From NCBI GenBank assembly GCA_964649825.1, contig CAZYQW010000086.1, forward strand, positions 21,027 to 85,026: a stretch of 64,000 bases of DNA, read 5' to 3'. The notes under the pieces were generated by a model, which was given only the letters and a program-made list of their open reading frames with translations, ran no database searches and was not told the origin of the DNA. The stretch comes from an uncultured Phycisphaeraceae bacterium. Lineage in GTDB: Bacteria > Planctomycetota > B15-G4 > JADJEK01. Below are positions 8,078 through 49,037 of this stretch, piece by piece. The position numbers and the translations under genes were made by a program. How positions within the stretch are numbered: position 1 is the stretch's first letter; every line of letters begins with the position of its first letter.

Positions 8078-8109
8078 GTCGGAGTTACGAATCGTTGACG
8101 AACGAAGAA

Positions 8110-8140
8110 GAGGCCTCGTGCGAGACTCGCGCGAGGCCTC
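8110..8140. terminator. GC-rich hairpin (GAGGCCTCG...CGAGGCCTC) lying between the glk 3' end and the tRNA-Glu 3' end. It is a possible bidirectional terminator.
   Basis: A 9-bp perfect stem was read in the sequence. It has T-rich flanks on both strands. Confidence 0.4.
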
Positions 8141-8150
8141 TTGGATCGTC

Positions 8151-8227
8151 TGGTAGCCCCAACGGGATTCGAACCCGTGTTTGATGGCTGAGAACCATCT
8201 GTCCTGGACCAGGCTAGACTATGGGGC
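8151..8227 (-). tRNA. tRNA-Glu (anticodon CUC).
   Basis: The reverse complement reads GCCCCATAGTCTAGCCTGGTCCAGGACAGATGGTTCTCAGCCATCAAACACGGGTTCGAATCCCGTTGGGGCTACCA. It has D- and T-arms (GGTTCGAATCC), a TTCTCAG anticodon loop and an encoded CCA. Confidence 0.85.
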
Positions 8228-8392
8228 CGTGTCCGAGCGGGGATGTTCCTCGCTCGGATGGTCAGTGTCAAGCCCGCCGCCGGGATTGGGCCGAAACTTC
8301 TCGGAGTTTCCGGCTCGCACCCGGCGCGGGGACCGACGACGTGGCGACGCCGGACACGGCGGCCCTTCGACGGGCGCGAGCGGACGGACGAC

Positions 8393-10324
8393 GTGAAACC
8401 AGCTGCCATCATCGCGATTCTCCTTCTCTTGTTCGGCGCGGCCGCCTACGTCTTCCTGATGGACGGCACGGAAGACCCCGGAGAGGATCCCGCGAGTTCA
8501 TCGAGCGCGATCGACGGGACCGGACCGACGGCGACGCGGACGGCGCAGAAGGCCCGCGCCGGGCGCGAGGAACGGCCGCCCGCCGACTTCCCCGACGTGG
8601 TGGCCCCGCCCGAACCGGCGGAAGCGTTCGTGGAGGAGAAGGGAACCCCCGAGACCGGCGTCACGGGCGTCGTGCTCTCCCCGACCGGCAGCGCGGTCCG
8701 GGACGCCGTCGTCACCTGCTACCGGCGCGAGAGCGAAGGGGACCTGCTTCGGTACTCGTCGACGCGCGTGAAGGAAGCGGTGACGACCAACGCCCGCGGC
8801 GGGTTCGAGATCGTCGGGCTCACCGGCGGGTCGGACTACGCGCTGCGCGTCGATCACGGATCGTTCGCCACGGCCGAGGTTGCGGGCATCGAGATCGAGG
8901 AGGGCCGGATGGTCCGCGTCCCCGACGTGGAGATGAAGGGTGGCGTCACGATCAGGGGAAACGTCACGCGACCGAGCGGCGCCGCCCTGGCGCAGGCGAT
9001 CGTGGCGGCGGCGAACTTGATGGACCCGGCGCGCGGCATCGTCCGCCAGGCCCTGACCGATCAGGACGGTGCCTATCGGCTCGAGAACCTGACGCCCGGG
9101 ATCTACGAGCTCAGCGCGCGCGCGGTGGGCACGCAACACCAGAAGACCGGTGCCGTTCATCTCCTGAACCCGCGCGAGGAGAACCGCCAGGACTTCGTCC
9201 TTCCCGACGGACTCGAGCTCTTCGGCCGAGTGTTGGAGCCGGGCGGCGAACCGGTGGCCGGCGTGCGCGTCACGGCCTCGCCCCTGCGGGGCGCCACCCA
9301 ATCGCCGGTCACGACGACGACGCGCTCCGACGGCTGGTTCCGCGCGGACGGGCTCGGCTCCGGCGAGTACCGGCTCGTCGTCGAGAAGCAGGGCTACATC
9401 TCGATCCAGAGGCCGCGCGAGGCGGCGGACGGCCGGGCCCGCCAGTTCACGCTCCATCGCACAGCGGGCGTGACCGGATTCGTGGTCGACCCAGGCGGCG
9501 AACCCATCACCCGGTTCTGGATCCGCGCGCTGCAGGTCGACACCGGCGGCAATCCGGTCGGACAGCGCGGAGAGATCGAGGCGGTGAAATCGAAGGACGG
9601 CTCGTTCACCGTCGAGGATCTCCCGCCGGGCCGGTACGCGATCCAGTCGTACGCCGACGGCTATGCGCCGACGATGTGCCGCTGGTTCCAGATGCAGAAC
9701 CAGTACATCCACGGAGTGAAGATCCGGATGGACCCGGAGTCGTCGATCACCGGGCTCGTCACCGACGCATCGGGTGCACCGTTTCCCGACGCGACGGTTC
9801 GCTTGCTCGACAACGCCTACCGCGACATGCCGAACGCACGGCTCCTGTTCGGCCGGTACTCGCGCCTGGGCAAGACGAAGACCGATGAGCTCGGACGCTA
9901 CACGTTCCAGTCGATCGGAGCCGGCACGTACCAGGTGCAGGCGAGCGCGCCGGATCGGCTCTCCGTCAGCCAGCGCGACGTCGTGGTCGAGACGGCGAGC
10001 CGCAAGGAGCTCGACCCGCTCGTTCTCACGGAGGGTGGCCACCTGACGGGAACCGTCTTCGGGGCCAGCAACGTCCCCGCGAACGGGGCGCGCGTGACGG
10101 TCTCGACTCCCGAGGACGGAGTGATCGCCGAGGTCCGTGCGAACGACCGCGGCGAGTTCTCCATTCGGAATCTGCGTCCGGGCGCGTACCGGCTCAGCGC
10201 GATCGGCGCCCAGGCGGCGGCCCAGAACATCTTCGCGGCCGCGATCCAGAGCACCCGCAGCGTGACCGACGTCAACGTCGTCGAGGGTCAGTCGATCCCG
10301 ATCACGATCTATCTGAACTCCTGA
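8393..10324 (+). CDS. Membrane-anchored protein with multiple carboxypeptidase-regulatory-like (CarboxypepD_reg/Cna-B type) beta-sandwich repeats.
   Basis: The proposed GTG start at 8393 gives VKPAAIIAILLLLFGAAAYVFL as a signal-anchor. Repeats of the form GxVxDxxGxPxxxAxVxL...GxYxxxxLxPGxYxL recur throughout. The start is uncertain. Confidence 0.55.
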   Translation: MKPAAIIAILLLLFGAAAYVFLMDGTEDPGEDPASSSSAIDGTGPTATRTAQKARAGREERPPADFPDVVAPPEPAEAFVEEKGTPETGVTGVVLSPTGSAVRDAVVTCYRRESEGDLLRYSSTRVKEAVTTNARGGFEIVGLTGGSDYALRVDHGSFATAEVAGIEIEEGRMVRVPDVEMKGGVTIRGNVTRPSGAALAQAIVAAANLMDPARGIVRQALTDQDGAYRLENLTPGIYELSARAVGTQHQKTGAVHLLNPREENRQDFVLPDGLELFGRVLEPGGEPVAGVRVTASPLRGATQSPVTTTTRSDGWFRADGLGSGEYRLVVEKQGYISIQRPREAADGRARQFTLHRTAGVTGFVVDPGGEPITRFWIRALQVDTGGNPVGQRGEIEAVKSKDGSFTVEDLPPGRYAIQSYADGYAPTMCRWFQMQNQYIHGVKIRMDPESSITGLVTDASGAPFPDATVRLLDNAYRDMPNARLLFGRYSRLGKTKTDELGRYTFQSIGAGTYQVQASAPDRLSVSQRDVVVETASRKELDPLVLTEGGHLTGTVFGASNVPANGARVTVSTPEDGVIAEVRANDRGEFSIRNLRPGAYRLSAIGAQAAAQNIFAAAIQSTRSVTDVNVVEGQSIPITIYLNS

Positions 10325-18095: not shown

Positions 18096-18917
18096 TCACG
18101 GTAGCTCGGACAAGTTGCGAAGGCGGTCCGCGAACGTCTCGATGACACCGTCATCCGGTGCTGCCGTCATCCCGCTCACTTCGCCGAGGTAGGGCACGGA
18201 GAACACTCGTGCTCCGCACGCCCGCGCCGCGAGCGCGTCATCGAACACCGAGGGCGGTCCCGCCGTCGGCCGCCCGCCGGTCAGATAACTACGACCTCCG
18301 ACGCAGCGGGCAAACTGTTTTCCGGACTCGAGGGGACGAACCCGGACGAACGCTGGAAACGCGACTCGCGGCCCCCACCCGTCCACCGCCGGTCGTCCGG
18401 CCGCGCGGCGCGCCGCGAACCGGTCGTCCGCTCCGCGAACGAGGACGCACCGGTCGCCGTCGCCGCCGCCGTTCGTGTCGCGGCTCGATTCGGTGGCGCC
18501 GAGGTAGGTCGGATCGAATGCGCCGGGAAGGCAAGCCGCGGGTCGGTCCCGGCGGTCCACGAGCCGTCGCTCCGCGACCGGGACGGTCGTGGCGACGGCG
18601 TCGGCCGCGCGCGCGATCCAGCGCGTCCGGACCGGCACGCCATCCGGCTCGTCCACGACCGGCGCGCTCCAGACGACCGTGCGGGCCCCGAACCGGCGCA
18701 ACAGATCGAGGGTGGACGGCTCCTCGCGTGCGGGCTGGACGAGCAGCACGAGACGTGGACGGAACGAAGCGCTCCACGCCGGCAGCTCGATCGTCGGGTC
18801 GCGCGACGCGGGGTGGTCGAACAGGAGCGCGTCCCACCCGATCGCGCGCGCCGCCGCGAGGAGCTGCGGCCCCTCGAACCGCGGCGACGCGCAGGGCGCC
18901 GAGATGAGGGTCCTCAT
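18096..18917 (-). CDS. Hypothetical protein, possibly glycosyltransferase-like.
   Basis: The ORF starts at ATG 18917 (MRTLISAP). It overlaps the downstream amidase and the upstream GT4 gene by 4 nt, implying operon membership. No motif I can name securely. Confidence 0.4.
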   Translation of the reverse strand: MRTLISAPCASPRFEGPQLLAAARAIGWDALLFDHPASRDPTIELPAWSASFRPRLVLLVQPAREEPSTLDLLRRFGARTVVWSAPVVDEPDGVPVRTRWIARAADAVATTVPVAERRLVDRRDRPAACLPGAFDPTYLGATESSRDTNGGGDGDRCVLVRGADDRFAARRAAGRPAVDGWGPRVAFPAFVRVRPLESGKQFARCVGGRSYLTGGRPTAGPPSVFDDALAARACGARVFSVPYLGEVSGMTAAPDDGVIETFADRLRNLSELP

Positions 18918-20077
18918 CGCCCGCTCCGGACGCCGAGGGCGCGAACCCGTTCGTACGCGGCCTCCACGTCGAGCGCCTGGCGAGCGAGCGAGAACCGCTC
19001 CTCGGAGCGACGCCGCCCCGCGGCGGCCATCCGGCGGCGGAGCGCCGCGTCGCGGGCCACCTCGACGAGCGCGGCCGCGAGCGCGCCGACCTCCTCGTCG
19101 ACCACGAAGCCCGTCTCCCCGTGCGCCACGATCTCGGGCAACGGCGGCCGGCGCGTCACCACCATCGGGAGCGACGCGGCGACGAGCTCGCGCGCGGCGC
19201 GGCACGAGGCGTCCGAGCCGGGCACGAGGAAGAGTCCGAAGTCGAGCGCGGCGACGACCGCGTCGTACGACTCTCCCTCACGGTAGCCGGCGAGCACGAC
19301 GTGGCGTTCGAGCCCGAGCCGCTCGATCGGCCGGACCGCGATCTCCTCGAGGTGGGTGCCACGACCAATGACGACGACGCGCAGCGACGGAGCCGCCTCG
19401 ACCGCCCGCGCCAGCGCGTCGAACAGGAGCTCGTACCGGCGGTGTCGTTGCACGCGAGCCACGATGCCGCCGACCACCTCGTCGTCGGAGAGCCCGAGTT
19501 CGGCCCGCGCCGCGGCTCGCAACGGATCGAGACGCGCGCGCGCGAACCGCTCGACGTCGACGGCGCCGGCGATCACGAACCGGCGCTCGATCGGCACCTC
19601 CTCCCGGACGGCGACCGCGACGGCCGCGGCGTCGGAGGCCGCGATCACGCCGTCGGTCAGTCGACGGAACGCGAGCCGTCGGCGCCATCCCCCCTCGACG
19701 TCCGGTCCTCCGTAGACCGTCCGCACGACGACCGCTCCCGTCCGCGCGCGACGCGCCGCCGCACCGGCCAGCAGGTGGTCGTTCAGGAGGTGCGCGTGGA
19801 TCACGTCGAAACGCCGCTCGCGAACGACCTCGACGAGGCGGCGCACGTCCCGCACGCCGGAGATCGGATGGAGGTGCTTCTGCAGGCGCAACCCGGAGAG
19901 CACTTCGAGGCCGTGCCGCTCCGCCTCGACGCGCACGCGGTTCTCGAGGTCCGGATACGGGCAGCGGCCGCACGCGAAGTCGACCGAGTGACGCAGGGCG
20001 AGCATGGCCGCGAGCCGGACCGCGGGCTCGGCCGGGCCGGTCCACTTCCAGTTGGAGAAGGCGTGGAGGATCCTCAC
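18914..20077 (-). CDS. Family 4 glycosyltransferase (Glycos_transf_1).
   Basis: The proposed GTG start at 20077 gives VRILHAFSNW. The GT4 C-terminal motifs read ESYDAVVAALDFGLFLV and VAHGETGFVV. It overlaps the kinase gene stop by 4 nt. Confidence 0.7.
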   Translation of the reverse strand: MRILHAFSNWKWTGPAEPAVRLAAMLALRHSVDFACGRCPYPDLENRVRVEAERHGLEVLSGLRLQKHLHPISGVRDVRRLVEVVRERRFDVIHAHLLNDHLLAGAAARRARTGAVVVRTVYGGPDVEGGWRRRLAFRRLTDGVIAASDAAAVAVAVREEVPIERRFVIAGAVDVERFARARLDPLRAAARAELGLSDDEVVGGIVARVQRHRRYELLFDALARAVEAAPSLRVVVIGRGTHLEEIAVRPIERLGLERHVVLAGYREGESYDAVVAALDFGLFLVPGSDASCRAARELVAASLPMVVTRRPPLPEIVAHGETGFVVDEEVGALAAALVEVARDAALRRRMAAAGRRRSEERFSLARQALDVEAAYERVRALGVRSGR

Positions 20078-21750
20078 GGCGCTCCTCGCACCGCGTCCGG
20101 CGACGGCGCGCCGATCGTCCTCGTCGCCCGCGCCCGCGTTCTTGCGCGGACGTCGCGCGCGACGTCGCGACCACGACAGGCGGGGACGTCGCGGCGCAGA
20201 CGGCGCAGCACCCGCAGGCGCACGCGCGCCGGGACCGACGGCGCGACGTCGTTCACTTGCGAGAGCCCCCGCAGAATCTGTTCGCGAAGCGGCGGACGGC
20301 CGAACGTGATCCCGTCGAAGTCGACGAGCCACGCGCGAGCGCCGTCCGCGTCGATCCGCACCATGAGATTCTTCGGCGAGAGGTCGTTCGCGCGCACGTC
20401 GCTGGAGAAGACGGCGACCAGCAGCTCGGCCACCGCGTCGGCGAGTTCACCCGCGCGCTCCTCGAGGTCGCCGCCCGCGCCGACGCGGAACGATAGGACC
20501 GAGAGCGGCTCGGCTCCCTCGACTGCGTCCATCACGACGATCGATCGATCCGGCGTCTTCAGCCACGCGACGACGCGCGGAACCGGCAGCCCGCGCACGA
20601 GGAGCGCGTGTCCGGCCTCGTACGCGCGGCCGCCGCGACCCTGCGTCCATCGCCCGCGCGGCGAGCGCCGTCCATCGCCCTCGTAGACCTTCACCGCGAA
20701 CGCCGCACCGCCCGCCGCGGCGATCGCGACGGCCGAACGACGGCCGAGCGCCCGCGCCGCGGCACCGCCGGCGGCGATCGCGGCGCGGGCGCTCGCGATC
20801 GCCGCGAACAAGGTGGTCTCGTCCACCTCACGGCGACGAAAGCCGCGCACGCCCCCGCACCGAACCGCTGCGAAGCCGGAGCTCTCTCGAGTCGCGCGGC
20901 GTGATCGACTCGCGAGGCGACGCCGCTCCCGTCGCCGCAGCGCGTGCGCGACCGCGGCCCGCCAGCGCGCGACCTCCGCGACCGGCCGCCCCGCCGCGAG
21001 CACGTACGCGGCGACCGCGTCGTCGTCGTCCGCGCGATCGAGCGCGTGACGCAACGTGTGGAGGAGATCGGCGAGCGCGAGGACGCGCCGGCGCGTCGCG
21101 ACCCGCGACCCGCGGACCACGCGGTGCAGGTCGATCACGTGGAGAGGACCGCCGTCGCCCTCGTTCCCGCGTTCGACCAGGAGGTTGCCGCCGTGGAAGT
21201 CCCGGTGGTCGAACCCGCGGGCGTGCAGGGCCGCGAGCAGGTCGGCTGCGCGACGCACCCACCGGCCCTTCCTCTCGCCCGCGCCGTCGCCCGGACGGAA
21301 CCGAGCCTCGAGGAAGCCGCCCAGCGGCACCGCTCCCGGCACCGCCCGGAGCGCGAACAGCGACCACTCACGCCTCCCGCGGATCGTACGGCTCCCGCGC
21401 GCCAGCGGCTCGGGGACGAGGAACCCTTCGCGACGGAGCGCCGTCGCCGTCGCCCACTCGCGCTCGGCGCGATCGCGTCCCACCAGCGCCTTCACTGCGT
21501 CCGCGGTTCCGGCGACGCGGTAGTGCTTGACGATCCACGCGCCGTCCGCGCTCGGGAGCTCGAACACGCAGCGTCGCGGGTTCTCCTTCAGGACGCGCCC
21601 CCCGTGCGCCGCCGGATCGAGCAACGCGTCGACCGAGAGCCCGGCCGCCGCGAGCGCCCCGCGCACGACGTTGAGATGCTCGCCCCGCGGCCCGCGGTGG
21701 AGCTCGAGGTCGTCGTGGTCGTGGGCGGGCGGGTCGCGGCCGTCTTGCAT
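20074..21750 (-). CDS. Tandem two-domain lipopolysaccharide kinase (Kdo/WaaP/InaA family).
   Basis: There are two kinase cores. The N-terminal half reads HARGFDHRDFHGGNLLVE...LHVIDLHRV. The C-terminal half reads ANDLSPKNLMVRIDADGARAWLVDFDGI. Confidence 0.6.
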   Translation of the reverse strand: MQDGRDPPAHDHDDLELHRGPRGEHLNVVRGALAAAGLSVDALLDPAAHGGRVLKENPRRCVFELPSADGAWIVKHYRVAGTADAVKALVGRDRAEREWATATALRREGFLVPEPLARGSRTIRGRREWSLFALRAVPGAVPLGGFLEARFRPGDGAGERKGRWVRRAADLLAALHARGFDHRDFHGGNLLVERGNEGDGGPLHVIDLHRVVRGSRVATRRRVLALADLLHTLRHALDRADDDDAVAAYVLAAGRPVAEVARWRAAVAHALRRRERRRLASRSRRATRESSGFAAVRCGGVRGFRRREVDETTLFAAIASARAAIAAGGAAARALGRRSAVAIAAAGGAAFAVKVYEGDGRRSPRGRWTQGRGGRAYEAGHALLVRGLPVPRVVAWLKTPDRSIVVMDAVEGAEPLSVLSFRVGAGGDLEERAGELADAVAELLVAVFSSDVRANDLSPKNLMVRIDADGARAWLVDFDGITFGRPPLREQILRGLSQVNDVAPSVPARVRLRVLRRLRRDVPACRGRDVARDVRARTRARATRTIGAPSPDAVRGAP

Positions 21751-21931
21751 GGTCTCGATCGCGGACGGTTCTTGTCCGACTCGCCCGAAGTATGGACGTC
21801 GGCTGGGACGTTCACAACCGCGATCGCGCCGGCGGCGCCGAGCCGATCGACCCGGCGTCGACGCTCGCCGAACGGGTCACCCCTCGACTTCCGGATCCCG
21901 CCCTCCTCGTCGACGCTCTACGATCCCTCCC

Positions 21932-23050
21932 ATGTCCCTGCCGATCCGCAGCCTTCATCTCGACACCGAGCGTACGTGGCGCGGCGGCGAGCAGCAGGTG
22001 CTCTACCTCGTCGACGGCCTCCGGCAACGCGGTCACGTGGCCGAGGTGGTCGGCCCCCCGGAGTCGCCGTTCGTGAAGCGGGCGCGCGAGGCCGGGGCGG
22101 TCGCGCACGAGGTTCCGCTGCGGGGCGAGCTGAGCCCGCGCGCCATCCGCCGGGTCGCGGCGATCCTGAAGGCCGGCGCGTTCGATCTGATCCACGCCCA
22201 CACCTCCCACGCGCACGCGATCGCGGCGATCGCGGCACGGCTCGCGCGACCGGCCCGCTGCGTCGTCTCGCGTCGCGTGGACTTCCCGATCCGGAGGGGC
22301 CCGTTCAGCCGCATGAAGTACCGCTTCGGCGTCGACCGCTACGTGGCGATCTCGCGAGCCGTGCGCGACGTCTTGGTTGGAGGCGGAGTGAACGAGGAAC
22401 GGATCCGGGTCGTGCCGAGCGGGATCGACCTCGCGCGCCTCGACGCGGCCGACGCGGAGTCGATCACGCGCGAGTTCGGCATCCCGCCCGGCGCCCGAGT
22501 CGTCGGCTCGCTCTCGTGGTTCGCGGGGCACAAGGGTCTCGAGCACTTCGTCGATGCCGTTCCCGCCGTCGCGGCGCGACACCCCGACGCGTGGTTCTTC
22601 CTCGTCGGCGACGGCGAGGAGCGCGCCGCCATCGAGGACCGGGCGCGCCGGGTCGCGCCCCACGCCCGCATCCGTTTCCCCGGCTTTCGGAAGGACGCGC
22701 TTTCGTTCCTCGCGCGCTTCGACGTGGTCTGCACCCCATCCGTCCTCGAGGGTCTGAACACGACGAACCTCGACGCACTCGCGCTCGGCCGGCCGGTCGT
22801 CGCCACCGCGGTCGGCGGGATCCCGGAGGCGGTGATCGACGGCGAGACCGGGCTCCTCGTCCCCCCCTCCGCTCCGGCCGCGCTCGCCGCCGCGATCGAG
22901 CGGCTCCTCGACGAACCCGAGCTCGGCGCCCGTCTCGGCGCGGCGGGGCGGGCGCTCGTCGAGCGACGGTTCACGAACGACGCGATGGTCGAGGGGACGC
23001 TCGAGGTGTACCGCGAGCTGCTTCGAGCCGGACCGACCGGCGGCGGCTGA
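21932..23050 (+). CDS. Family 4 glycosyltransferase (WaaG/RfaG-like). It is transcribed divergently from the LPS-kinase operon.
   Basis: The ORF starts at ATG 21932 and reads MSLPIRSLHLDTERTWRGGEQQVLYLVDGL. The C-terminus reads EGLNTTNLDALALGRPVVATAVGGIPE. Confidence 0.8.
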   Translation: MSLPIRSLHLDTERTWRGGEQQVLYLVDGLRQRGHVAEVVGPPESPFVKRAREAGAVAHEVPLRGELSPRAIRRVAAILKAGAFDLIHAHTSHAHAIAAIAARLARPARCVVSRRVDFPIRRGPFSRMKYRFGVDRYVAISRAVRDVLVGGGVNEERIRVVPSGIDLARLDAADAESITREFGIPPGARVVGSLSWFAGHKGLEHFVDAVPAVAARHPDAWFFLVGDGEERAAIEDRARRVAPHARIRFPGFRKDALSFLARFDVVCTPSVLEGLNTTNLDALALGRPVVATAVGGIPEAVIDGETGLLVPPSAPAALAAAIERLLDEPELGARLGAAGRALVERRFTNDAMVEGTLEVYRELLRAGPTGGG

Positions 23051-23054
23051 CGGA

Positions 23055-23140
23055 TGGGTTCACGACGACGAACGACGCAGAGATCGGCGACGAGCAACCG
23101 CCAGGCGTGGGGCGGGCCCGAATCGATCGGGGTTACCCGG
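23055..23140. repeat. Copy A of a conserved ~80-nt non-coding element (GGGTTCACGACGACGAACGACGCAGAGATCGGCGACGAGCAACCGCCAGGCG...), upstream of the gene at 23345.
   Basis: It aligns at roughly 90% identity, by eye, with 46465-46550. Both copies sit in 5' intergenic regions of secreted-protein genes. Confidence 0.5.
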
Positions 23141-23344
23141 GCCGCCGAGGCGGCGTATCATGGCGACCGCACCCACCGGCGCGGGGCGCGCGAGGAGTGG
23201 TGGTGCGATTCGCTCGGAAACCCGCGGTATCGTTGAAGCGGCATCGACGCTCGGCGCACGGGGCGGCGACGCCGACCGATCGCAACCGCCCCCGAGCCTC
23301 CCGATAGGCGCGCGCCGGAAGGCGGTCGGCGCGGCTATCATGCT

Positions 23345-25267
23345 GTGATGCGTTTCCTGCTGCCGTTCCTCCTCCTCGCGATCGCCGTCCTGACCGCGTT
23401 GTTCCTGTTCCGCGCCGGTGACGCCGAACGCCCGCGCGACGACGCCGGGCGCGTCGACGGGGTCGACGCGACGCAACCGGACGTCGAAGCCCCGCCGAAC
23501 GGGCCGATTCGCGCGTCGGATCCGGAGCGGGTCTCCCTCTCGCCGGGGACGACTGCGCCCAGCGGCCGCGCGCCCGCGGGAGCCGAGGGCAGCGTCGGGA
23601 GCGGCCTCTCCGGTCGGGTCACGAGCATGGACGGACGACCGATCACGGGTGCGCGGGTCGAAGCGCTCGAGGAACAGAGGAGCCTGCTCACCCTCCGCAC
23701 CCCGCTCGGAATCGAGACGGCGACCGACGGCGCGGGACGGTTCGGGCCGCTCGATCTCGCTGGCCCGCTGCCGGTCGCCCTGCGGGTGAGCGCGCCGGGA
23801 TACGCGACGACGACCGTCGGACCGTACGCGCCGGAGCGCGCGGTCCCGATTCCCGACGTACGGCTCGATGACGGGTTCGTCCTCGCCGGAACCGTCCGCT
23901 CGGACGTCGACCTCGCGCCGGTCCCGGGCGCGCGCGTCATGGTCCATCTCGACCCGCCGCGGGCGGGGCTCGGTACCGGCGCTCTCTTCGCCGAGCAGTC
24001 GACCGAGACCGACGCCGCTGGCCGCTACCACGTCGACGGCCTCGGCTACCGCCAGTACCGCGTCGAGGCCGCCGCCGACGGCTTCGCTCCGACCTCGGTC
24101 TCGCGGACGTTCCTCGTGCAGCGGCACCAGAAGGAGATCGAGCTCGACCTCGCTCTGCAACCGGCCACCCGCGTGCTCCACGGCGTCGTGCGCACGAGGG
24201 GCGATGAGCCGCTCGGCGGCGCGCGGGTCCTGGCGCGGTCGATGGGCGGCGCGCGGGACCAGCCCGCCGCCGCTGCGACGTCGTCCGCCGACGGGAGCTT
24301 CACGCTCACCGGCCTCGCGGACGCGCCCTACGAGGTGAGCGCGACGGCGACGGGCTACGTGCTCGGTCGGCCCGTCGAGGTGCGGCCCGGGCCGGAGGCG
24401 ATGGAGCTCGTGCTCGACGAATGCGGCCGGATCGCGGGACGGGTCCTCGCGGCGGGCGGTCGGGCCGCGGAGCGCGCGATCGTGGACTTGGTCCACCTCG
24501 GCGACGGGGCCGAGAGAACGGTGAGGTCGATCGGCACCGGCGCCGGCGGGACGTTCGCGCTCGAGAACGTCCCGCCCGGCCGCTACCGGATCGACGCGAA
24601 GGCGGACGGCTCGGTCGCGGTCCAGGGCACGGGGTTCGACCTCGACCCGGGCGAATCGATCGAGGATGCGGTGGTGCGGCTCGGACGCGGCGGTCGCGTT
24701 CGGGGCCGCGTCGTGGACGATGGCGGGCGACCGATCGCCGACGCGATGATCGATCTCTTCCCATCGGACACCGACCGCACGACTCCGGTGACCGAGTCGG
24801 CGTTCCTGGAGGCGACCGCGCGGCGACGCTCGACGTCAGCGAGCGACGGCACGTTCGTGCTCGACGCGGTGCCGGAGGGCTCGTTCGTGGTGCGCGTGGC
24901 GGCGGACGCGCGGGCGACGACGTGGAGCGACGCAGTCGTCGTCGACGGGAGCGACACCGCGACGGTCGGCGACGTCGCGCGCGGCGCCGGCGCGACCCTC
25001 CGCGGCGTCGCGCTCGACGAGGACGGCCTGCCTCTTCCGCGCGCGCGGGTGGAAGCGCGCTCGACGGACGCCGGCCACGCGGAGACCGCATGGACCGCCG
25101 CGGACGGCACGTTCGCGATGGAGCGCCTGCCCGGCGGACGGTACGAGATCACGTTGCCGATCGAGGATCCGACCGACGTCTTCCGCTATCGCAGCCGAGC
25201 GGAGGCCGACGTCCCGGCCGGCGGCGACGTTGCCGTGACCGTACGCCGCGAGCGACGGTCGGGCTGA
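23345..25267 (+). CDS. Signal-anchored protein with multiple carboxypeptidase-regulatory-like beta-sandwich repeats. It is a paralog of the gene at 8393-10324.
   Basis: The N-terminus reads MMRFLLPFLLLAIAVLTALFLF. It has the same recurring GRVxxxxGxPxxxAxV...GxYxV repeat pattern. Confidence 0.6.
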   Translation: MMRFLLPFLLLAIAVLTALFLFRAGDAERPRDDAGRVDGVDATQPDVEAPPNGPIRASDPERVSLSPGTTAPSGRAPAGAEGSVGSGLSGRVTSMDGRPITGARVEALEEQRSLLTLRTPLGIETATDGAGRFGPLDLAGPLPVALRVSAPGYATTTVGPYAPERAVPIPDVRLDDGFVLAGTVRSDVDLAPVPGARVMVHLDPPRAGLGTGALFAEQSTETDAAGRYHVDGLGYRQYRVEAAADGFAPTSVSRTFLVQRHQKEIELDLALQPATRVLHGVVRTRGDEPLGGARVLARSMGGARDQPAAAATSSADGSFTLTGLADAPYEVSATATGYVLGRPVEVRPGPEAMELVLDECGRIAGRVLAAGGRAAERAIVDLVHLGDGAERTVRSIGTGAGGTFALENVPPGRYRIDAKADGSVAVQGTGFDLDPGESIEDAVVRLGRGGRVRGRVVDDGGRPIADAMIDLFPSDTDRTTPVTESAFLEATARRRSTSASDGTFVLDAVPEGSFVVRVAADARATTWSDAVVVDGSDTATVGDVARGAGATLRGVALDEDGLPLPRARVEARSTDAGHAETAWTAADGTFAMERLPGGRYEITLPIEDPTDVFRYRSRAEADVPAGGDVAVTVRRERRSG

Positions 25268-34274: not shown

Positions 34275-35531
34275 GTGACGAACCCCTCGGTCGACGCCGA
34301 TCGCCTCTATCAGTCGCTGGACGAACTCGGCCGGATCGGCGCGTTCGAGGACGAGACGACCGGCCTCGTCGGCGTGCGACGCCTCGCGCTGACCGACGCG
34401 GACGCGGACGGGCGCAACCGGGTCGTCGCCTGGATGCGGGACGCGGGGCTCTCGGTCTCGATCGACGCGATCGGCAACGTCTTCGCCGAGCGACCGGGCG
34501 CGGACCGGTCGCTGGCGCCGGTCATGGTCGGCTCGCACATCGACTCCGTCCCGACGGCGGGACGATTCGACGGGACGCTCGGGGTCCTCTCCGGTCTGGA
34601 GATCGCCCGGCGCCTGAACGAGCTCGACCGCTCGACGCTCCGGCCGCTCGTCATCGCGTTCTTCACCGACGAGGAGGGCTGCCGTTTCGGCACCGACATG
34701 CTCGGCAGCGCGGTCGCGACCGGTCGGATGCGGCTCGAGGACGCGTACGCGCTGACCGACCGCGAGGGCCGCTCCGTCGGCGAAGAGCTCGAGCGGATCG
34801 GCTTCCTTGGCGCGGAGCCGGTCGGGCAGCGACGGCCGCACGCGTACGTCGAGTGTCACATCGAGCAGGGGCCGATGCTCGTGAACGAGCGCGTCGACGT
34901 CGGCGTGGTGACCGGGGTGCAGGCGATCTCCTGGATCGAGGCGTCGTTCATCGGACGCTCGGCGCACGCGGGCACCACGCCGACGTCGTACCGCCGCGAC
35001 GCGGGGCTGGCCGCGGCGCGCGTCAACGTTCGTCTGCGCGAGATGGTCGACTCGGGCGACTACGGCGAGCTCCGCGCCACGATGGGCGTGCACCGGCCGC
35101 ACCCCGGCGTGGTGAACGTGATCCCGGGCCGGTTCCTCGCCACCATCGACCTCCGCAATCCCGACGACGCGATGATGGAGCGCGCCGAACGGGACGTGAT
35201 CGCCTACCTGGAGGAGCGCGAGCGCGACGATCGCGTCGAGGTCCGCTTCCGCCGGACCGCGAAGACCGGGATGGTGCCGTTCGACCCGCGCATGCAGGCG
35301 TTGATCGACGAGGTCGCGGGCGCCCGCGGACTCTCCCGCCGCCCGATCCTTTCCGGCGCAGGGCACGACGCCCAGGAGTGGGCCCCCATCTGCCCGACCG
35401 CCATGGTCTTCGTCCCTGGCGAGCACGACGGCATCAGCCACAATCCACGCGAGCTCTCGACGAAGGAGCAATGCGAGCACGGCGCCAACGTGCTGCTCGA
35501 CGCCGTGCTCACGCTCCTCGACGAGGAGTGA
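34275..35531 (+). CDS. M20-family amidohydrolase (allantoate amidohydrolase/N-carbamoyl-amino-acid hydrolase type).
   Basis: The ORF starts with GTG. The metal-ligand motifs read GSHIDSVPTAGRFDG and FFTDEEG. Confidence 0.75.
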   Translation: MTNPSVDADRLYQSLDELGRIGAFEDETTGLVGVRRLALTDADADGRNRVVAWMRDAGLSVSIDAIGNVFAERPGADRSLAPVMVGSHIDSVPTAGRFDGTLGVLSGLEIARRLNELDRSTLRPLVIAFFTDEEGCRFGTDMLGSAVATGRMRLEDAYALTDREGRSVGEELERIGFLGAEPVGQRRPHAYVECHIEQGPMLVNERVDVGVVTGVQAISWIEASFIGRSAHAGTTPTSYRRDAGLAAARVNVRLREMVDSGDYGELRATMGVHRPHPGVVNVIPGRFLATIDLRNPDDAMMERAERDVIAYLEERERDDRVEVRFRRTAKTGMVPFDPRMQALIDEVAGARGLSRRPILSGAGHDAQEWAPICPTAMVFVPGEHDGISHNPRELSTKEQCEHGANVLLDAVLTLLDEE

Positions 35532-35777
35532 CGGCGCGCTCGATCCGACCACGATCGTCGGCTTCTCGGTCCGGATCGATCGGAGTCTCCGTTCATCGGT
35601 CGCATTCGAGTCAGGAGATCGACCATGCGACCTGCTCGGCCACGAACCTCGCTCGTGAGTTCCCTCCTCGTCCTCGCCGCGTTCTCGGCGCTGCTCGCCT
35701 CGGAGCTGGCGGGCCAGGTCGCGGCCCCGGGTTCTTCCGAACCAGAGCGTCCGCCGCTGAGCGGCCGTCGCGACACC

Positions 35778-38681: not shown

Positions 38682-38872
38682 GTGCCGCCGCGAGCGACCG
38701 ACCCTCCGCCGAGAAACTCTGGCAGAATCCACGTCCGGTGCGCCGCGCCGCCACGTTCATTGGGGGCAGGACGCGTCCGACGGCTTCGAGACCGCGGAAA
38801 GGAGCGCGCGTGCCCGGCCAGGATCCTACCCCTTCACCCGCCGAGCGGCATGAAACCCCTTCTCGCGACCGC

Positions 38873-39511
38873 ATGGAGACCGACGAGTTCCTCGGTCTCT
38901 TCCAGCGCGCGAAAGAGGGCGACCTCGACGCCTTCGAGCGGATCTTCGAGCGGTGCTACAACACGGTCCTCGCGATCGTTCGCCGCCGGCTGGGGGCGCG
39001 GATGCGCGAGGTCGTCGAGTCCGGCGACGTGCTCAACGACGTCATGGTGCGGGCGATCCAGAACTTCTCCGGCTTCGACGTCGGCAACCGGACCGAGCTG
39101 CTCGCGCTCTTCGTGCACATGGTCAAACAGGGGATCACGGACGCCGCCCGCTACCACGGGGCGCAGAAGCGAGACCGCGACCGCGTGCGCGCGCTCCGGC
39201 ACGTCACCGAGTCGATCGCCAGCGGCCGCCTCGTCCTCGAGCCGGCCGCGGACGCGCCCGCCATCCTCGACCACCTCTCGCGCGAAGAGGAGAAGGAGAT
39301 CGCGAAGCAGTGCCTCGCCGAGCTCGACCCGACCGACCGGGCCGCGATCGAGTCCCGCACGATCCACGCGGACGCGAGCTGGGACGAGATGGCCGCGCTC
39401 CTCGGTGCGCCGAGCGCGGACGCCGCCCGTCATCGAGTCCAACGCGCCATGATCGCGCTGAAGAAGCGCTACGACCGAGCGAGGGGCGGCGATCGTCCTT
39501 CGGATTCTTGA
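38873..39511 (+). CDS. ECF sigma factor, Ser/Thr-kinase-associated type (second copy).
   Basis: The ORF starts METDEFLGLFQRAKEGDLDAFERIFERCYNTVLAIVRRRL and has a C-terminal region 4 (LDPTDRAAIESRTIHADASWDEMAALLG). It is divergent from the kinase at 35778. Confidence 0.7.
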   Translation: METDEFLGLFQRAKEGDLDAFERIFERCYNTVLAIVRRRLGARMREVVESGDVLNDVMVRAIQNFSGFDVGNRTELLALFVHMVKQGITDAARYHGAQKRDRDRVRALRHVTESIASGRLVLEPAADAPAILDHLSREEEKEIAKQCLAELDPTDRAAIESRTIHADASWDEMAALLGAPSADAARHRVQRAMIALKKRYDRARGGDRPSDS

Positions 39512-39535
39512 TTCGTGTTTCCAGAGGAGAGACCC

Positions 39536-39907
39536 ATGAAGCGCTTTCTGACCCTAGCGATGCTCGCGATCCTCGTTGGCAGTGCCACCGGATCGATGTC
39601 GTTCTTTCGGCCCGGTGGAAACGCCGGGACCAGCTCGCCACCCAACGGTGTCTACAGTGGCAAGGTCCACGTCCGCGGCCAGTCCTACTACGTCGTCGGT
39701 CACGTGAAGATCCAGGGGATCGACTCGCTCGTCCCGGGAACGCTCTGCATCTCGTTCGACGAGGCATCACTCGATCCCATGGAGAAGGCTACGCTCGAGC
39801 GCGCGACGTTGCCCGGCTCCGGGTACGAGAACGTCGAGGTGGGCATCGCCCCCGAACCGGGCATGCCCGGCACGCCGACGGTTCGCTGGGTCGATCCGTT
39901 GCCGTAG
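39536..39907 (+). CDS. Small secreted hypothetical protein.
   Basis: A GGAGAG ribosome-binding site lies 5 nt before the ATG. The signal peptide reads MKRFLTLAMLAILVGSATG. It sits immediately downstream of the ECF sigma gene. Confidence 0.5.
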   Translation: MKRFLTLAMLAILVGSATGSMSFFRPGGNAGTSSPPNGVYSGKVHVRGQSYYVVGHVKIQGIDSLVPGTLCISFDEASLDPMEKATLERATLPGSGYENVEVGIAPEPGMPGTPTVRWVDPLP

Positions 39908-39945
39908 ATCGAAGCGCACGGCATCCAGGACGCTACGCTGTCGCC

Positions 39946-40707
39946 ATGCCCGAACTCCGTTCGCCGCGCCCCGTCTACCTGCCGCGTCTGCTCTCCAAGT
40001 ATGGATTCTGCTCGCGGAAGGAGGCGGAGCGGCTCGTCATCGACGGGCGCGTGGCGGTGAACGGCGTCACGCGCCGCAACGTCCTGTTCGAGGTGCGGCC
40101 GGGCCGAGATCGAGTCACCGTCGACGGTGCGGCGATCGCGCCGGCCGCGCCCATCGTCGTGAAGATGCACAAGCCGGTCGGCGTCGTGACGACCATGAAG
40201 GACGAACGCGGGCGCGCATCGGTGAAGGACCTCCTCCCGCCGGACCTCGCCGGGGTGATGCCGATGGGAAGGCTCGACCGCGACACGTCCGGGCTGCTCC
40301 TCCTCGGCAACGACCACGACCTGGCCAACCTCGTGGTCGGCGATCGATCCCGCGTCGAGAAGCTCTACCGCGTCACCGTGGCCGGTGCCCTCGACGACTC
40401 CCGGCTCGCACCGCTGCGTCGCGGAATCACCCTCGACGGCGAGCGCTGTCGTCCGGCGCGGGTTCGCGTCCAGCGCGTCGTGGACGGCGCCGTGGTGGTC
40501 GAGGTCGTGCTCGTCGAGGGGAAGAACCGCCAGATCCGACGATCGTTCGCGGCGCTCGGGCTCGAGGTCGTCCAGCTCGAGCGCCTCGCGGTCGGTCCCG
40601 TGGCCCTTGGAGACCTCGCGCCGGGCGAGGTCTGCCGCCTCGCCGCCGCGGAGCTCGCGGCGCTCCGCCTCGCCGCCGCGGCGGAGCGCGGACGAGACCG
40701 CGAGTAG
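39946..40707 (+). CDS. Pseudouridine synthase (RsuA/RluB family, S4 domain plus PseudoU_synth_2).
   Basis: The catalytic Asp loop reads GRLDRDTSGLLLL. The N-terminal S4 motif reads LLSKYGFCSRKEAERLVIDGRVAVNG. Confidence 0.8.
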   Translation: MPELRSPRPVYLPRLLSKYGFCSRKEAERLVIDGRVAVNGVTRRNVLFEVRPGRDRVTVDGAAIAPAAPIVVKMHKPVGVVTTMKDERGRASVKDLLPPDLAGVMPMGRLDRDTSGLLLLGNDHDLANLVVGDRSRVEKLYRVTVAGALDDSRLAPLRRGITLDGERCRPARVRVQRVVDGAVVVEVVLVEGKNRQIRRSFAALGLEVVQLERLAVGPVALGDLAPGEVCRLAAAELAALRLAAAAERGRDRE

Positions 40708-40789
40708 GGCGGTCGTTCCGAGCCCGACGTCCACCGCCTCGATCTCGACGCCGGGTTCGAGCGAGCGCGGACCCGACCGCCGAATCCCC

Positions 40790-41227
40790 CTACGCGCGTC
40801 CCGCGAACTGCTCGACCCGCGCAACGTACCGCGGGAACAGATCGAGCGCGGAGCGAACCGAGTGGAGCACGATCTGGTCGTCGATGCGATCGTACTCGTG
40901 GACGAGTCGGTTGCGTAGGCCGGCGGACGGCGCGAGAGACCGCGCGAGGCTCTCGTCGAGCACTCCGATGCCGGCGAGTGCAATGAAGCTCGTGAAGAGA
41001 TCGTCGGGCGCGACCGCTCCGGAGGCAACCAACATGTGGGCATTCAGGTCGACCGCCGCGTCCACGATCTCCTGGAGCAGGCGCTCCGTCGCCTTGCGTC
41101 GATACACGTCCGCGGCGTACGCCTCGACGGAGAGCTCCTTCATCGGCTCGAGCAGGCGGAGGTTCTGCGTGATCCTCTCCAGCTTGCGAAGAACGATGTC
41201 CTGCTCCAGGGGAGACATCTCGCTCAT
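40790..41227 (-). CDS. HepT-like (DUF86) toxin of a HepT/MntA toxin-antitoxin pair.
   Basis: The C-terminal Rx4HxY motif reads RNRLVHEYDRID. The 145-aa ORF overlaps the upstream nucleotidyltransferase gene by 4 nt. Confidence 0.75.
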   Translation of the reverse strand: MSEMSPLEQDIVLRKLERITQNLRLLEPMKELSVEAYAADVYRRKATERLLQEIVDAAVDLNAHMLVASGAVAPDDLFTSFIALAGIGVLDESLARSLAPSAGLRNRLVHEYDRIDDQIVLHSVRSALDLFPRYVARVEQFAGRA

Positions 41228-41652
41228 GTCCGAGGCGCGGGGTCGAGCCCGCGATCGGCCAGGTACTTTCGAATCCCCCGATGACGCGACGCACGGAGCT
41301 TCGACGTGTCGTTGTACCGCCGGAGCGCGAGGCTCGCGAACGAGGCGAACGCTCCCGCCTCGGACTCGTGCAGCGCGATTCCGTAGCGGGCGATCGCCAT
41401 CGCCAGCAGCGGAGTCGTGCGGCGGACGTCGACCACGTCGACCCGCCCGCTTCCGAGTCGGTGCATGATCTCGGCCTCCAGCTCGGCGACGTCGCCGTCC
41501 ACGAGAACCGCGAGGTCGACGTCGCTGTCCGCCCGCGCCGTCCCCTTCGCGTGGGATCCGAACAAGACGATCAAGCCGACCTCGGGACGATCGAAGATCG
41601 GTGACAGACGACGCCGGATGTCGTCCTTGCTGATCGGAGGCTTCGTCGGCAT
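41224..41652 (-). CDS. MntA-like minimal nucleotidyltransferase antitoxin.
   Basis: The nucleotidyltransferase motif reads LFGSHAKGTARADSDVDLAVLV (GSx9-13DxD). Confidence 0.8.
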   Translation of the reverse strand: MPTKPPISKDDIRRRLSPIFDRPEVGLIVLFGSHAKGTARADSDVDLAVLVDGDVAELEAEIMHRLGSGRVDVVDVRRTTPLLAMAIARYGIALHESEAGAFASFASLALRRYNDTSKLRASRHRGIRKYLADRGLDPAPRT

Positions 41653-41811
41653 GGTGCGTCCGATGGTAGCTGGCGCGGGTCGTGGCGGGAAGTCTCGGGC
41701 GGCGGAGGGGACGGCGCGAGGCGGCCCAAGGCGTACGGAGTGCGGGCGCGGCCGGCGATCGGTCTCGCCGAACTCGACTCGGGACCGGCGCCGTTCGCGA
41801 AACGGCGACGC

Positions 41812-41823
41812 GGGGGGGGGGGG
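41812..41823. repeat. Homopolymeric G12 tract.
   Basis: It was read directly as cGGGGGGGGGGGGc, in ORF-poor DNA upstream of the TA pair. Confidence 0.6.
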
Positions 41824-42620
41824 CGCGCGAAGAACGAAGACTGGGCGCGACGGGCAGCGTCGTCGGCCGGCACGCGCGCCGCTCGACATCCGCGACGATG
41901 CTCCTGCCGCTCGGGACCGCACCGCAGACCGCGATGCCGATCCTGCGACACGTGACAGCGAGATGACGATGACGCGCGACGTTCGGACGCGGATCGACGC
42001 CACAGGTCTCGCCGTCGACCCTCGAGCGCGCCCGACGGAGCGGCCACGAGCACGCCGGCGCTCGTGACGCGCAAGTCGGCCTTTCGAGCCGCCGTTCAGG
42101 AGACGAGCAGCTCGAAGATCGCGTGCGGCGACGTCGCCGCGTCGAACGGCGCGCGCGCGTAGTCACCGCGGACTGCCGTGACGCAAAACCCGGAGTCGGC
42201 CGCGTAGGGCGACGTCGTCGTCGTGGGGCTCTCGTCCACGACCGCGCACGCGCCGATCGACTTCTACTCGGGGACGCTGCTCCTCGGCGGGTCGATCGAT
42301 TTCGCGATGCTCGCGGTGATCGGCGTCACGAGCAACGACTGATCGACTCCCGTCTTCATCGTCGATCTCGGGCCCGGAGTGCAGAGCCGGACCGTCCACC
42401 TGAAGACGTTCCACCTCGGGCCGAGCCCGGCGGCAGCGATCGCTCCGTTCTCGGAGGGAATCCTGCTCGACGACTCGTTCTGACGAGCGAACGCGCTCAG
42501 CGCAACGCGAGCGTGATCGGTCCCAACGGGAGCGCACGGGCGCTCCCGCTGCCGAGCAGCTCGCTCGTCTGCTCCACGACCGCCCTCTGAACGACCGCAG
42601 CGGCAAGTCTCGCGCCGAGA

Positions 42621-44990: not shown

Positions 44991-46280
<1,290 letters not shown>

Positions 46281-46464
46281 CGATCATCCTCCGTCGACGT
46301 CACCCGAACATCATCCCGGACGATTCACGCCCGTCCCGCGAGAAACGGAGCGGCGCGGGAGCACAACCCCTTACTTGGACCGACAGACCCATTGCAAGGA
46401 TTTGGAGCGAGCTTCCCTCGCGGAGTGATCGTCGTCGAGATCCAGGAGTGAGGAGGAGATCGAC

Positions 46465-46550
46465 CCGGGTGGGTTCTCGACGACGAACGACGCAGAGATC
46501 GGCGACGAGCACCCGCCAGGCGCGGGACGGGCGGGAATCGTTCGGGATCA
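46465..46550. repeat. Copy B of the conserved ~80-nt non-coding element (GGGTTCTCGACGACGAACGACGCAGAGATCGGCGACGAGCACCCGCCAGGCG...), upstream of the gene at 46721.
   Basis: It aligns, by eye, at roughly 90% identity with 23055-23140. Confidence 0.5.
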
Positions 46551-46720
46551 TAGGTCCGTTCGCCGCGCAACTCAGCACGACGCGAAGTGGTCGCCGCGAC
46601 AACCACGCGAGGCGCGGGAGAACGCCGTCGCGGAAGGAGACCCGGCGGCGAATCGGCCTGCTATGCTGCGCGCGAACGAGAGCGGACCAGCCCACAACCG
46701 TCCCGCGAAGGAGGAATACC

Positions 46721-47974: not shown

Positions 47975-48065
47975 CCGCGCCCTTTACTTTCCGGATCCAC
48001 GTCGTTCGGCATCTGGACGCGGCGACCTCGACTGACCCAGCCCGGTTCCGTCCAATTCCGCGCCG

Positions 48066-49037
48066 TCAGCACGCGGCCGCCGCGTCCTTCGCGAAGTAGG
48101 TCAACACGAAATCCGCCCCCGCTCGCACGATCCCCGTGAGCGACTCCATCATCACCCGGTCGTGATCGAGCCACCCGTTCGCCGCCGCTGCCTTCAGCAT
48201 CGCGAACTCCCCGCTCACCTGATACGCGGCGATCGGCACGTCGAACCTCCGCCGCGCGTTGGCGATCACGTCGAGGTACGGCATCGCGGGCTTCACCATG
48301 ATCACGTCGGCGCCCTCTTCGACGTCGAGCGCGATCTCGGCCATCGCCTCGCGGCCGTTCGGCGGGTCCATCTGGTAGGTGCGCCGGTCGCCGAACCGCG
48401 GCGCCGAGTCGGCGGCGTCGCGGAACGGGCCGTAGAAGCCCGAGCAGTACTTCGCGGCGTAGGAGAGGATGGCGACGTCGTCGAAGCCGTTCTCGTCGAG
48501 CGCGCGTCGGATCGCGGCCACGCGGCCGTCCATCATGTCGGACGGAGCGACGACGTCGGCGCCGGCCTTCGCGTACGCGACGGCGGCCGCTGCGAGGCGC
48601 GGGAGCGTCGGATCGTTCAGGACTTCCTCCCCGCTCACGATGCCGCAATGACCGTGGTCCGTGTATTCGCAGAGGCACACGTCGGCTATCACGACCAGGT
48701 CGGGGCACTCGGCCTTCAGCGCGCGGATCGCCTGCGGCACGACGCCCTCGGGGTCGTCGGCACCGTTGCCGGCGCCGTCCTTCTCCGGCGGCAGGCCGAA
48801 CAGGATCACGCCCGGCACGCCCAGCTCGAACGCCTCGACCGCGTCCTCGACCAGCGGCTCGACCGATTGACGGTGGACGCCGGGCATCGACGGCACCTCG
48901 TGGCGCACCCCCTCGCCGGAGCAGACGAACTGCGGGTAGATGAAGCGATCGGGCGTGAGACGGGTTTCGCGCACGAGGCGCCGCACTCCTTCGGAGGCGC
49001 GCAGTCGACGCAGTCGTCGGTCGGGGAATCCCACCAT
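48066..49037 (-). CDS. hemB: Porphobilinogen synthase (delta-aminolevulinate dehydratase).
   Basis: The ORF starts at ATG 49037 and reads [25 protein letters not shown]. It contains [14 protein letters not shown], the SYAAKY Schiff-base lysine, and [10 protein letters not shown]. Confidence 0.9.

Follow-up and report, generated by a model that had tools for sequence, protein, structure and literature searches.

Genomic context of the two copies

Two copies of a short non-coding sequence, termed copy A and copy B, lie 23,415 bp apart and in the same orientation within the window (the whole stretch of 64 kb that was analysed, with a G+C content of 70.8%). Copy A abuts the TGA stop codon (23048-23050) of a GT4 glycosyltransferase gene (21527-23050) and precedes a gene starting with ATG at 23348, the product of which contains six CarboxypepD_reg repeats. 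A second gene with six CarboxypepD_reg repeats is present at 8192-10324. Copy B is flanked by divergent genes, hemL (44991-46283, - strand) on one side and, on the other, the gene for the CxxCH protein (46721-47974, GTG start), a product of 417 aa with a signal peptide, a CVACH motif and no Pfam domain.

In a repeat search of the window, copy A aligns with part of copy B over 81 nt, without gaps and with both sequences on the + strand. The eight differences include T>C, G>A and CC>GG, and the copies have in common an exact 34-nt core, CGACGACGAACGACGCAGAGATCGGCGACGAGCA (23063-23096 in copy A). With up to three mismatches allowed, the core has no third match in the window, and 0.00 matches are expected from 100 dinucleotide shuffles. 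As the core is exact in both copies, is matched nowhere else in the window and has zero expectation in shuffles, the repeat is real and not a product of chance. The remaining repeat families of the window are GC-rich matches of 65-80% identity within coding DNA. An earlier note on this DNA described two non-coding stretches that align nearly base for base; this description holds, with true coordinates a few bases off the 23055-23140 and 46465-46550 given there. The note further placed each copy 200-250 nt upstream of a gene for a secreted protein. The distances hold approximately (216 nt from the end of copy A to the ATG, and 174 nt from the end of copy B to the GTG), and both downstream proteins begin with a signal-peptide-like sequence.

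Table 1. Positions of the repeat copies, their parts and the nearby promoter-like boxes in the window
Feature	Position	Strand	Basis or remark
Copy A, truncated half copy	23051-23131	+	90% identical to 46466-46546
TATCAT, -10-like box	23336-23341	+	Sequence; 6 nt before ATG 23348; inferred from spacing
ATCAT, left 5-bp direct repeat	46310-46314		Read from sequence
Copy B, complete non-coding unit of ~232 nt	46315-46546	+	blastn inverted repeat, fold
Left inverted-repeat arm, CCCGGACGATTCACGCCCGTCCCGCG	46315-46340	+	Complementary to 46521-46546 at 24/26, plus one G-T
Rod hairpin, ~104 nt	46417-46520	+	MFE -45.7 to -47.1 kcal/mol, z = -3.1
34-nt core, position in copy B	46478-46511	+	34 nt identical in copy A; 29 nt identical in L018
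Right inverted-repeat arm	46521-46546	+	Also in copy A (23106-23131), 81% identity
ATCAT, right 5-bp direct repeat	46547-46551		Read from sequence; A/B homology stops at 46546
TATGCT, -10-like box with TG upstream	46662-46667	+	TAnnnT followed by C(T/C/A)GCCC upstream of 8/8 CxxCH orthologues

Structure of copy B

The 81-nt repeat constitutes the 3' third of a larger non-coding structure in copy B, which consists of a left inverted repeat, a variable left branch, a rod hairpin and a right inverted repeat. The right terminus of the unit reads ...TCGTTCGGG. According to blastn, 46310-46340 recurs as its inverted complement at 46521-46551 with 90% identity, and the ends can be read in two ways: as a 31-nt repeat with one C/C mismatch near its end, or as 26-bp repeats plus the flanking ATCAT. 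The pentanucleotide is nearly palindromic and is therefore also readable as a 4/5 extension of the inverted repeat; the ATCAT pair may represent either a target-site duplication or such an extension.

The rod hairpin (MFE of -45.7 kcal/mol and z = -3.1 in the + strand fold of 46420-46520) rests on an 8-bp basal stem, GUCGUCGA/UCGGCGAC, which includes one U-G pair. Above it, five consecutive 2x2 loops, each of the form 5'-GA/5'-GA, are separated by one or two Watson-Crick pairs, and the rod is capped by an apical stem, GACCC/GGGUU. A (GGA)n-like strand is thus set opposite a (CGA)n-like strand with a period of 3 nt. The five GA/GA tandems compare with a mean of 0.29 and a maximum of three in 1000 dinucleotide shuffles, and are unique among 5112 segments of the window, the next best of which has two. 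The - strand of the hairpin folds less well (z = -2.0 vs -3.1), while the whole region 46300-46560 yields z = -4.5 on the + strand and -5.1 on the - strand. No promoter-like or terminator-like signals are found around copy B.

Other long hairpins of the window, near-perfect and with stems of 16-24 bp, are located at ~20720-20830, ~35470-35560, ~8100-8200 and ~42470 (z of about -4 to -6). Convergent genes flank at least one of them, which may be a terminator without a U-tract; none resembles the element in sequence.

Structure of copy A

The homology between the copies runs from the apical loop of copy B (46466) to the terminus of its right inverted repeat (46546). Of the rod hairpin, copy A thus has the 3' strand alone, with no 5' partner, followed by the right inverted-repeat arm. 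Neither copy A nor its whole intergenic region folds beyond the shuffled controls (z = +0.1 to +1.1). The 66 nt upstream of copy A, which encode the glycosyltransferase C-terminus, are unrelated to the 5' arms of copy B and of the homologous hairpin in metagenome contig L018 (z of 0.7 and -0.7, respectively), whereas these two 5' arms resemble each other (z = 6.6). A degenerate 5' arm hidden in the 3' end of the glycosyltransferase gene is ruled out by global alignment (z = 0.7). The converse possibility, that copy A is a remnant of the glycosyltransferase C-terminus, was also rejected: the match between RFTNDAMVEG and GFTTTNDAEIGD is weak, is missed by blastn and is taken as chance. The CarboxypepD_reg protein downstream of copy A has no orthologue above 34% identity with which the context of the copy could be compared.

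A homologous hairpin and the search for further copies

Among 185,579 species-representative genomes, a collection that does not include the source genome, a 20-mer search returned 17 hits, all of them chance matches in coding DNA with ~40% flank identity. A 22-mer scan of 241 million metagenome records, from which the source genome is likewise absent, returned a single contig, L018 (Ga0224508_10087511, 2089 nt). The - strand of L018 forms a ~105-nt hairpin of the same design as the rod of copy B (MFE of -50.9 kcal/mol, z = -6.6), with a weaker fold on the opposite strand (z = -2.8). Both hairpins have the same basal stem, the same U-G pair and the same 52-nt spacing between the basal-stem halves. 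The GA/GA tandems of L018 occur at positions matching those of copy B, three as strict 2x2 loops and two within slightly larger loops, and the rods differ by one swap of G-C to C-G. The basal extension is paired in both hairpins from unrelated sequences (CCAG/CUGG, CGA/UCG and UGG/CCA in L018; UC/GA, GUG/CAC and GCGG/CCGC in copy B). The retained tandems, the differing but paired extensions and the swapped pair suggest selection acting on the hairpin; covariation between the two full sequences is minimal, amounting to three pairs in RNAalifold. Identity along the 3' strand is 33/36 between copy B and L018 and 35/36 between copies A and B, above that of the 5' strand. The 3' strand is therefore more conserved than the structure alone requires.

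The L018 hairpin fills the gap between two convergent genes, for an EamA-type transporter and a lipoprotein, on a contig unrelated to the window, and no synteny links the loci of copy B and L018. Its outer stem, ACGCGGG/CCCGCGT, has CTCATGAG on both sides and overlaps the last codons of an EamA-type transporter gene. The inverted repeat of L018 is only 7 bp long, or 15/16 bp if CTCATGAG is counted; as these flanks are palindromic, they can be read as a duplication or as an extension of the inverted repeat. The three sequences thus occupy three contexts: after a glycosyltransferase stop codon (copy A), in a divergent intergenic region (copy B) and between convergent genes (L018).

Two further properties of copy B can be judged against L018. 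A perfect 12-bp stem may form in copy B between 46429-46440 and 46475-46486 (-43.7 kcal/mol vs -47.1 kcal/mol for the rod). In L018 the equivalent segments make up a direct repeat and such pairing is impossible, so the alternative stem is taken as not conserved. As to coding capacity, copy B has one long open frame only; it lacks any start codon upstream of 46587, and L018 does not conserve it. A small ORF or leader peptide was rejected, since copy A has an ATG (23054) and copy B a GTG (46469) where L018 has AAG, and the frames diverge after the repeat; the frame encoding TNDAEIGD, also considered as a peptide, has no start codon in copy B.

Secure copies number three only (A, B and L018), and the family is known from three or four sequences. 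No element copy is found in 135 kb of relatives' DNA, and L018 alone has a hairpin with at least three GA/GA tandems within ~100 kb of such DNA. Viral contigs gave three chance hits, as well as no match to the structure-aware pattern GTCGTCGAGATC-N(40-65)-GAGATCGGCGAC; plasmids and phages gave no match. Two candidate copies were not accepted: a 26-nt core-like match in contig L029 (10022-10047; nhmmer E = 0.11, fold z of 0) and a putative third copy of the inverted repeat downstream of the CxxCH gene (47975-48066), whose z of 1.5 falls short of significance.

The earlier note proposed an Rfam scan and folding of both copies. No family matches, and copy B folds whereas copy A does not. Around copy B, the best sub-threshold Rfam hits reach 12-14 bits (E of 2-5), and neither copy A nor L018 has a hit with E <= 1. 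At the gathering threshold, Rfam 15 finds two tRNAs only in the window. ARAGORN reports in addition a 'tRNA-???' with a 4-base anticodon at 19022-19112 (- strand), which lies inside a glycosyltransferase ORF (18914-20446), is absent from the Rfam results and is probably a false positive.

Contig ends in the metagenome assembly graph are suggestive of further element copies in SRR10083321, the sample of the source genome. Logan contigs are built with k = 31, each 31-mer being unique within an accession (PMC12424806). Contig L019, which represents the window's own sequence, begins at 46517, i.e., at 46547 minus 30 (k-1). Its 30-nt graph overlap ends at 46546, so the branch points to another sequence of SRR10083321 that shares the right end of copy B and then diverges; copy A is not the branch partner, as it differs from copy B at several of those 30 nt. 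Contig L021, from the same sample, begins 153 nt upstream of a CxxCH orthologue with CCTGCAACGAAGAGATCGGTCGCGAGG, a core-like sequence cut by the contig end, so that the contig start lies inside the core-like ACGAAGAGATCGGTCGCGAG. L021 is a possible fourth copy, judged from this short stretch. Positions 1-30 of both L019 and L021 are element-like, as expected if the element is repeated in the metagenome graph.

The hemB-hemL junction

The closest relatives of the HemL protein are 66-70% identical, and the lineage is therefore poorly sampled. In all four relatives compared (L027, L028, L029 and L030), hemB lies 4-155 nt directly upstream of hemL. The gene order in L029 is ccsA-like, hemA, hemC, hemD, hemB, hemL and response regulator, and the window has the same order on the - strand. 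There, however, hemB (48066 to about 49050) and hemL are 1.78 kb apart (46288-48065), and the intervening segment holds the unit of copy B and a promoter box, as well as the CxxCH gene, which runs on the opposite strand. Judged by this gene order, copy B and the CxxCH gene together form a 1.8-kb insertion that splits the hemB-hemL pair. With the pair split, hemL must have gained a new promoter or rely on read-through. A foreign origin was considered on grounds of composition: the G+C content of the insert is 0.67 vs 0.73, yet the CxxCH gene has a GC3 of 0.92, as is usual in this genome, and no signal emerges. No empty site for the element is found, and the scanned ORFs of the 64-kb window include no transposase, integrase or reverse transcriptase.

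Elsewhere in the window, the C-terminal part of the product of an ORF at 40790-42166 (- strand) matches a HepT-like (HEPN) ribonuclease toxin domain; the surrounding region (38757-42620) contains overlapping ORFs without other Pfam hits and is poorly resolved.

Promoter boxes and orthologous loci

Orthologues of the CxxCH protein are 70-79% identical to it (73% for the protein of L021). Seven loci were compared, L019 being the window itself. By blastn and an nhmmer profile, the element is missing upstream of at least five of six orthologues (listed as L020, L022, L023, L024, L025 and L026), and the neighbours of these genes differ from those in the window. Conserved positioning in relatives, which the earlier note had made a test of its own proposal, is thus contradicted. 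In L026, the gene immediately preceding the CxxCH orthologue is CarboxypepD_reg-like (62-1768), which may reflect a functional link between the two families.

The same note had pointed to a similar motif, GCTATCATGCTG / GCTATGCTG, closer to the two start codons. A second motif does exist there, GGCTATCATGCTG at 23333-23345 and CTGCTATGCTG at about 46658-46668; it is, however, an ordinary -10 box (TAnnnT) within GCTAT(CAT)GCTG and not part of the repeat. The -10 box and the accompanying motif are common to CxxCH orthologues with or without the element. Variants of TAnnnT in the eight upstream regions include TATGCT, TACAGT, TACACT, TAGGAT and TATCGT; C(T/C/A)GCCC follows 6-20 nt after the box, and the start codon about 30-45 nt farther. 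The box with its C(T/C/A)GCCC motif (within 46621-46723 of the window; also upstream of the genes in L020-L026) may be a family-specific 5' UTR or promoter-proximal signal.

Since TATCAT ends only 6 nt short of the ATG and the stretch (23336-23350) has no Shine-Dalgarno sequence, the CarboxypepD_reg mRNA is probably leaderless. As each gene has its own, closer -10-like box, the element is probably located upstream of the promoters and not in a 5' UTR.

Interpretation of the repeat

The favoured reading, held tentatively and with a probability of about 0.45, is that the 81-nt repeat represents the right part of a lineage-restricted, non-coding hairpin repeat that is MITE-like or foldback-like. 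Among the options of the earlier note, a small dispersed repeat is therefore preferred, on account of the half-copy anatomy, the three contexts and the absence from orthologous loci. A mobile repeat is favoured by the length of 232 bp, the 26-bp inverted repeats (24/26), the lack of coding capacity and the flanking 5-bp direct repeat. Against a MITE are the few copies known, the lack of a transposase among the scanned ORFs and the ambiguous reading of ATCAT; the chief point, however, is that the inner hairpin is conserved between copy B and L018 and the outer inverted repeats are not, the reverse of what is usual in MITEs. The copies would have spread by transposition or recombination, presumably through a trans-acting enzyme encoded at another location. 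The conserved hairpin would be read single-stranded from the + strand, as RNA or ssDNA; this strand is preferred because the G-U pairs and the GA/GA mismatches exist only on it and the - strand folds less well. Its nearly invariant 3' strand would probably be the part recognised by a protein. Copy A would be a remnant extending from the hairpin tip to the right terminus only. The position of the element upstream of two genes for secreted proteins would be incidental, each gene being served by a -10 box close to its start codon. Copy A is probably inert; the identical 34-nt core retained in a half copy suggests that it may not be.

That the hairpins of copy B and L018 are instead genes for novel structured sRNAs (GA-rich rods, protein-binding or acting in trans), with copy A as a pseudogene fragment, or as a target or decoy able to pair with the 5' half of the copy B transcript, is unlikely on balance, albeit the main and a serious rival: the inner hairpin is conserved where the terminal repeats are not, and the G-U pairs and GA/GA tandems are strand-specific. 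The fold itself depends on the strand (z of -3.1 and -6.6 on the + strand vs -2.0 and -2.8 on the - strand), and the G-U pairs and tandems are retained along with a 3' strand at 33/36 and 35/36 identity. Given that no Rfam family matches, such an sRNA would be new. It is disfavoured by the absence of promoter-like or terminator-like signals around copy B and of synteny between copy B and L018, by the overlap of the L018 outer stem with a coding region and by minimal covariation (three pairs from two full sequences); moreover, truncated copies and contig breaks suit a repeat better. A decidedly unlikely extension of the mobile reading makes the ~104-nt hairpin a new structured RNA or ssDNA module, a rod in which G-C pairs alternate regularly with tandem sheared G.A pairs, carried on mobile units and recognised by a protein through its invariant 3' strand, with copy A still serving as a bare recognition site.

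Also improbable would be a one-off copying of 81 nt from copy B to the site of copy A by ectopic repair or recombination, with no function and no mobility. Only two copies exist in 64 kb, copy A does not fold, and a 34-nt run without differences is not very unlikely given eight differences in 81 nt (roughly 0.1, by estimate). Such an event does not account for the homologous L018 hairpin in an unrelated context, nor for the fact that copy A ends, and a Logan contig breaks, exactly at the inverted-repeat terminus of copy B. The earlier note leaned towards regulation, in the form of a shared promoter or operator or a cis-regulatory RNA leader. A DNA operator, upstream promoter element or 5' leader RNA co-regulating both genes for secreted proteins now appears very improbable, although both copies precede genes for exported proteins, on their coding strand and at distances of 174-216 nt, a possible diverged copy precedes the orthologue in L021, and the CarboxypepD_reg-like gene of L026 adjoins a CxxCH orthologue. 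The shared promoter or operator is unsupported because no gene lies downstream of the L018 hairpin, the other orthologous loci keep the -10 box and the CTGCCC motif without the element, and the two genes have -10 boxes of their own; no sigma-70-like site is present in the region of either copy. The RNA leader finds no support either: copy A is unstructured (z of +0.1 to +1.1) and shares no structure with copy B, the position is not conserved, the promoter likely lies downstream of the element, and the CarboxypepD_reg mRNA probably has no leader, starting from a box 200 nt downstream of copy A. Finally, direct repeats in the same orientation and 23,415 bp apart could be attL/attR-type remains of the integration of the intervening 23.4-kb segment. 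This last reading is effectively refuted: hemL lies inside the interval and its neighbour hemB just outside, as in the relatives, which makes the junction ancestral. In addition, no integrase is encoded in the scanned ORFs of the interval, integration into the 3' end of a gene would have left the intact copy on the other side, and the repeats are only 90% identical. Two other types of element were rejected on inspection. A template/variable repeat pair of a DGR does not fit, as the differences are not confined to adenines, no reverse transcriptase is found and both copies are non-coding; an integron attC site would carry a RYYYAAC ... GTTRRRY core-site pair, which is seen in none of the sequences of copy A, copy B and L018.

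If the mobile-repeat reading is correct, it calls for caution in annotation, as conserved upstream blocks in high-GC metagenome-assembled genomes can be fragments of repeats; here, the true promoter box lies outside the conserved block. The element would also flag the 1.8-kb segment inserted into the conserved hemB-hemL operon junction, an arrangement that leaves the present-day transcription of hemL to be explained.

Comparison with known systems

REP, REPIN and BIME elements comprise GTAG- and CGTC-tagged families of 20-40 bp with stems of 6-13 bp and tens to hundreds of copies (PMC3733652). The element resembles REP sequences as an extragenic imperfect palindrome: the location of L018 between convergent genes is typical, CGTC occurs in the 5' arm, and G-T pairing in the stem suggests action as RNA. 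It departs from REP and REPIN in the length of the hairpin (~104 nt), in having no definable unpaired tetranucleotide tag and only two copies in the window, and in that no RAYT gene is seen. A likeness to integron attC sites lies in the imperfect palindrome of ~100 nt, read on one strand and situated beside a gene whose neighbours differ in every genome examined; unlike attC, the hairpin is located upstream of a gene and its promoter and not at a 3' end, and has neither core sites nor an integrase.

Bacterial MITEs (e.g., Correia/NEMIS, ERIC, RUP and Nezha) measure 70-300 bp and carry terminal inverted repeats of 15-30 bp (PMC3733652). Copy B is similar to them in size (232 bp), in the lack of coding capacity, in its 26-bp inverted repeats and in the short flanking direct repeat. 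Further similarities are a location in intergenic regions or overlapping gene ends, the presence of one truncated copy and the capacity to fold as RNA. It differs in that no cognate IS or transposase is found in the scanned ORFs of the window and in that the internal hairpin, rather than the inverted repeats, is common to the full copies. We know of no description of a regular array of tandem G.A mismatches in MITE families.

Tandem sheared G.A motifs occur in structured RNAs, such as K-turns and loop E-like helices. No family described in Rfam 15 matches five stacked tandems in one helix, with (GGA)n facing (CGA)n, and the loops of the rod are not K-turns, as they have no 3-nt bulge. The 5'-GA/5'-GA 2x2 loops of the rod are nevertheless flanked by G-C pairs, as in tandem sheared G.A motifs. 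The family is new at the sequence level, and the element is of a known kind, with one unusual feature: five stacked tandem G.A mismatches conserved at two unrelated loci, which, if read by a protein, would constitute a new recognition motif in RNA or ssDNA.
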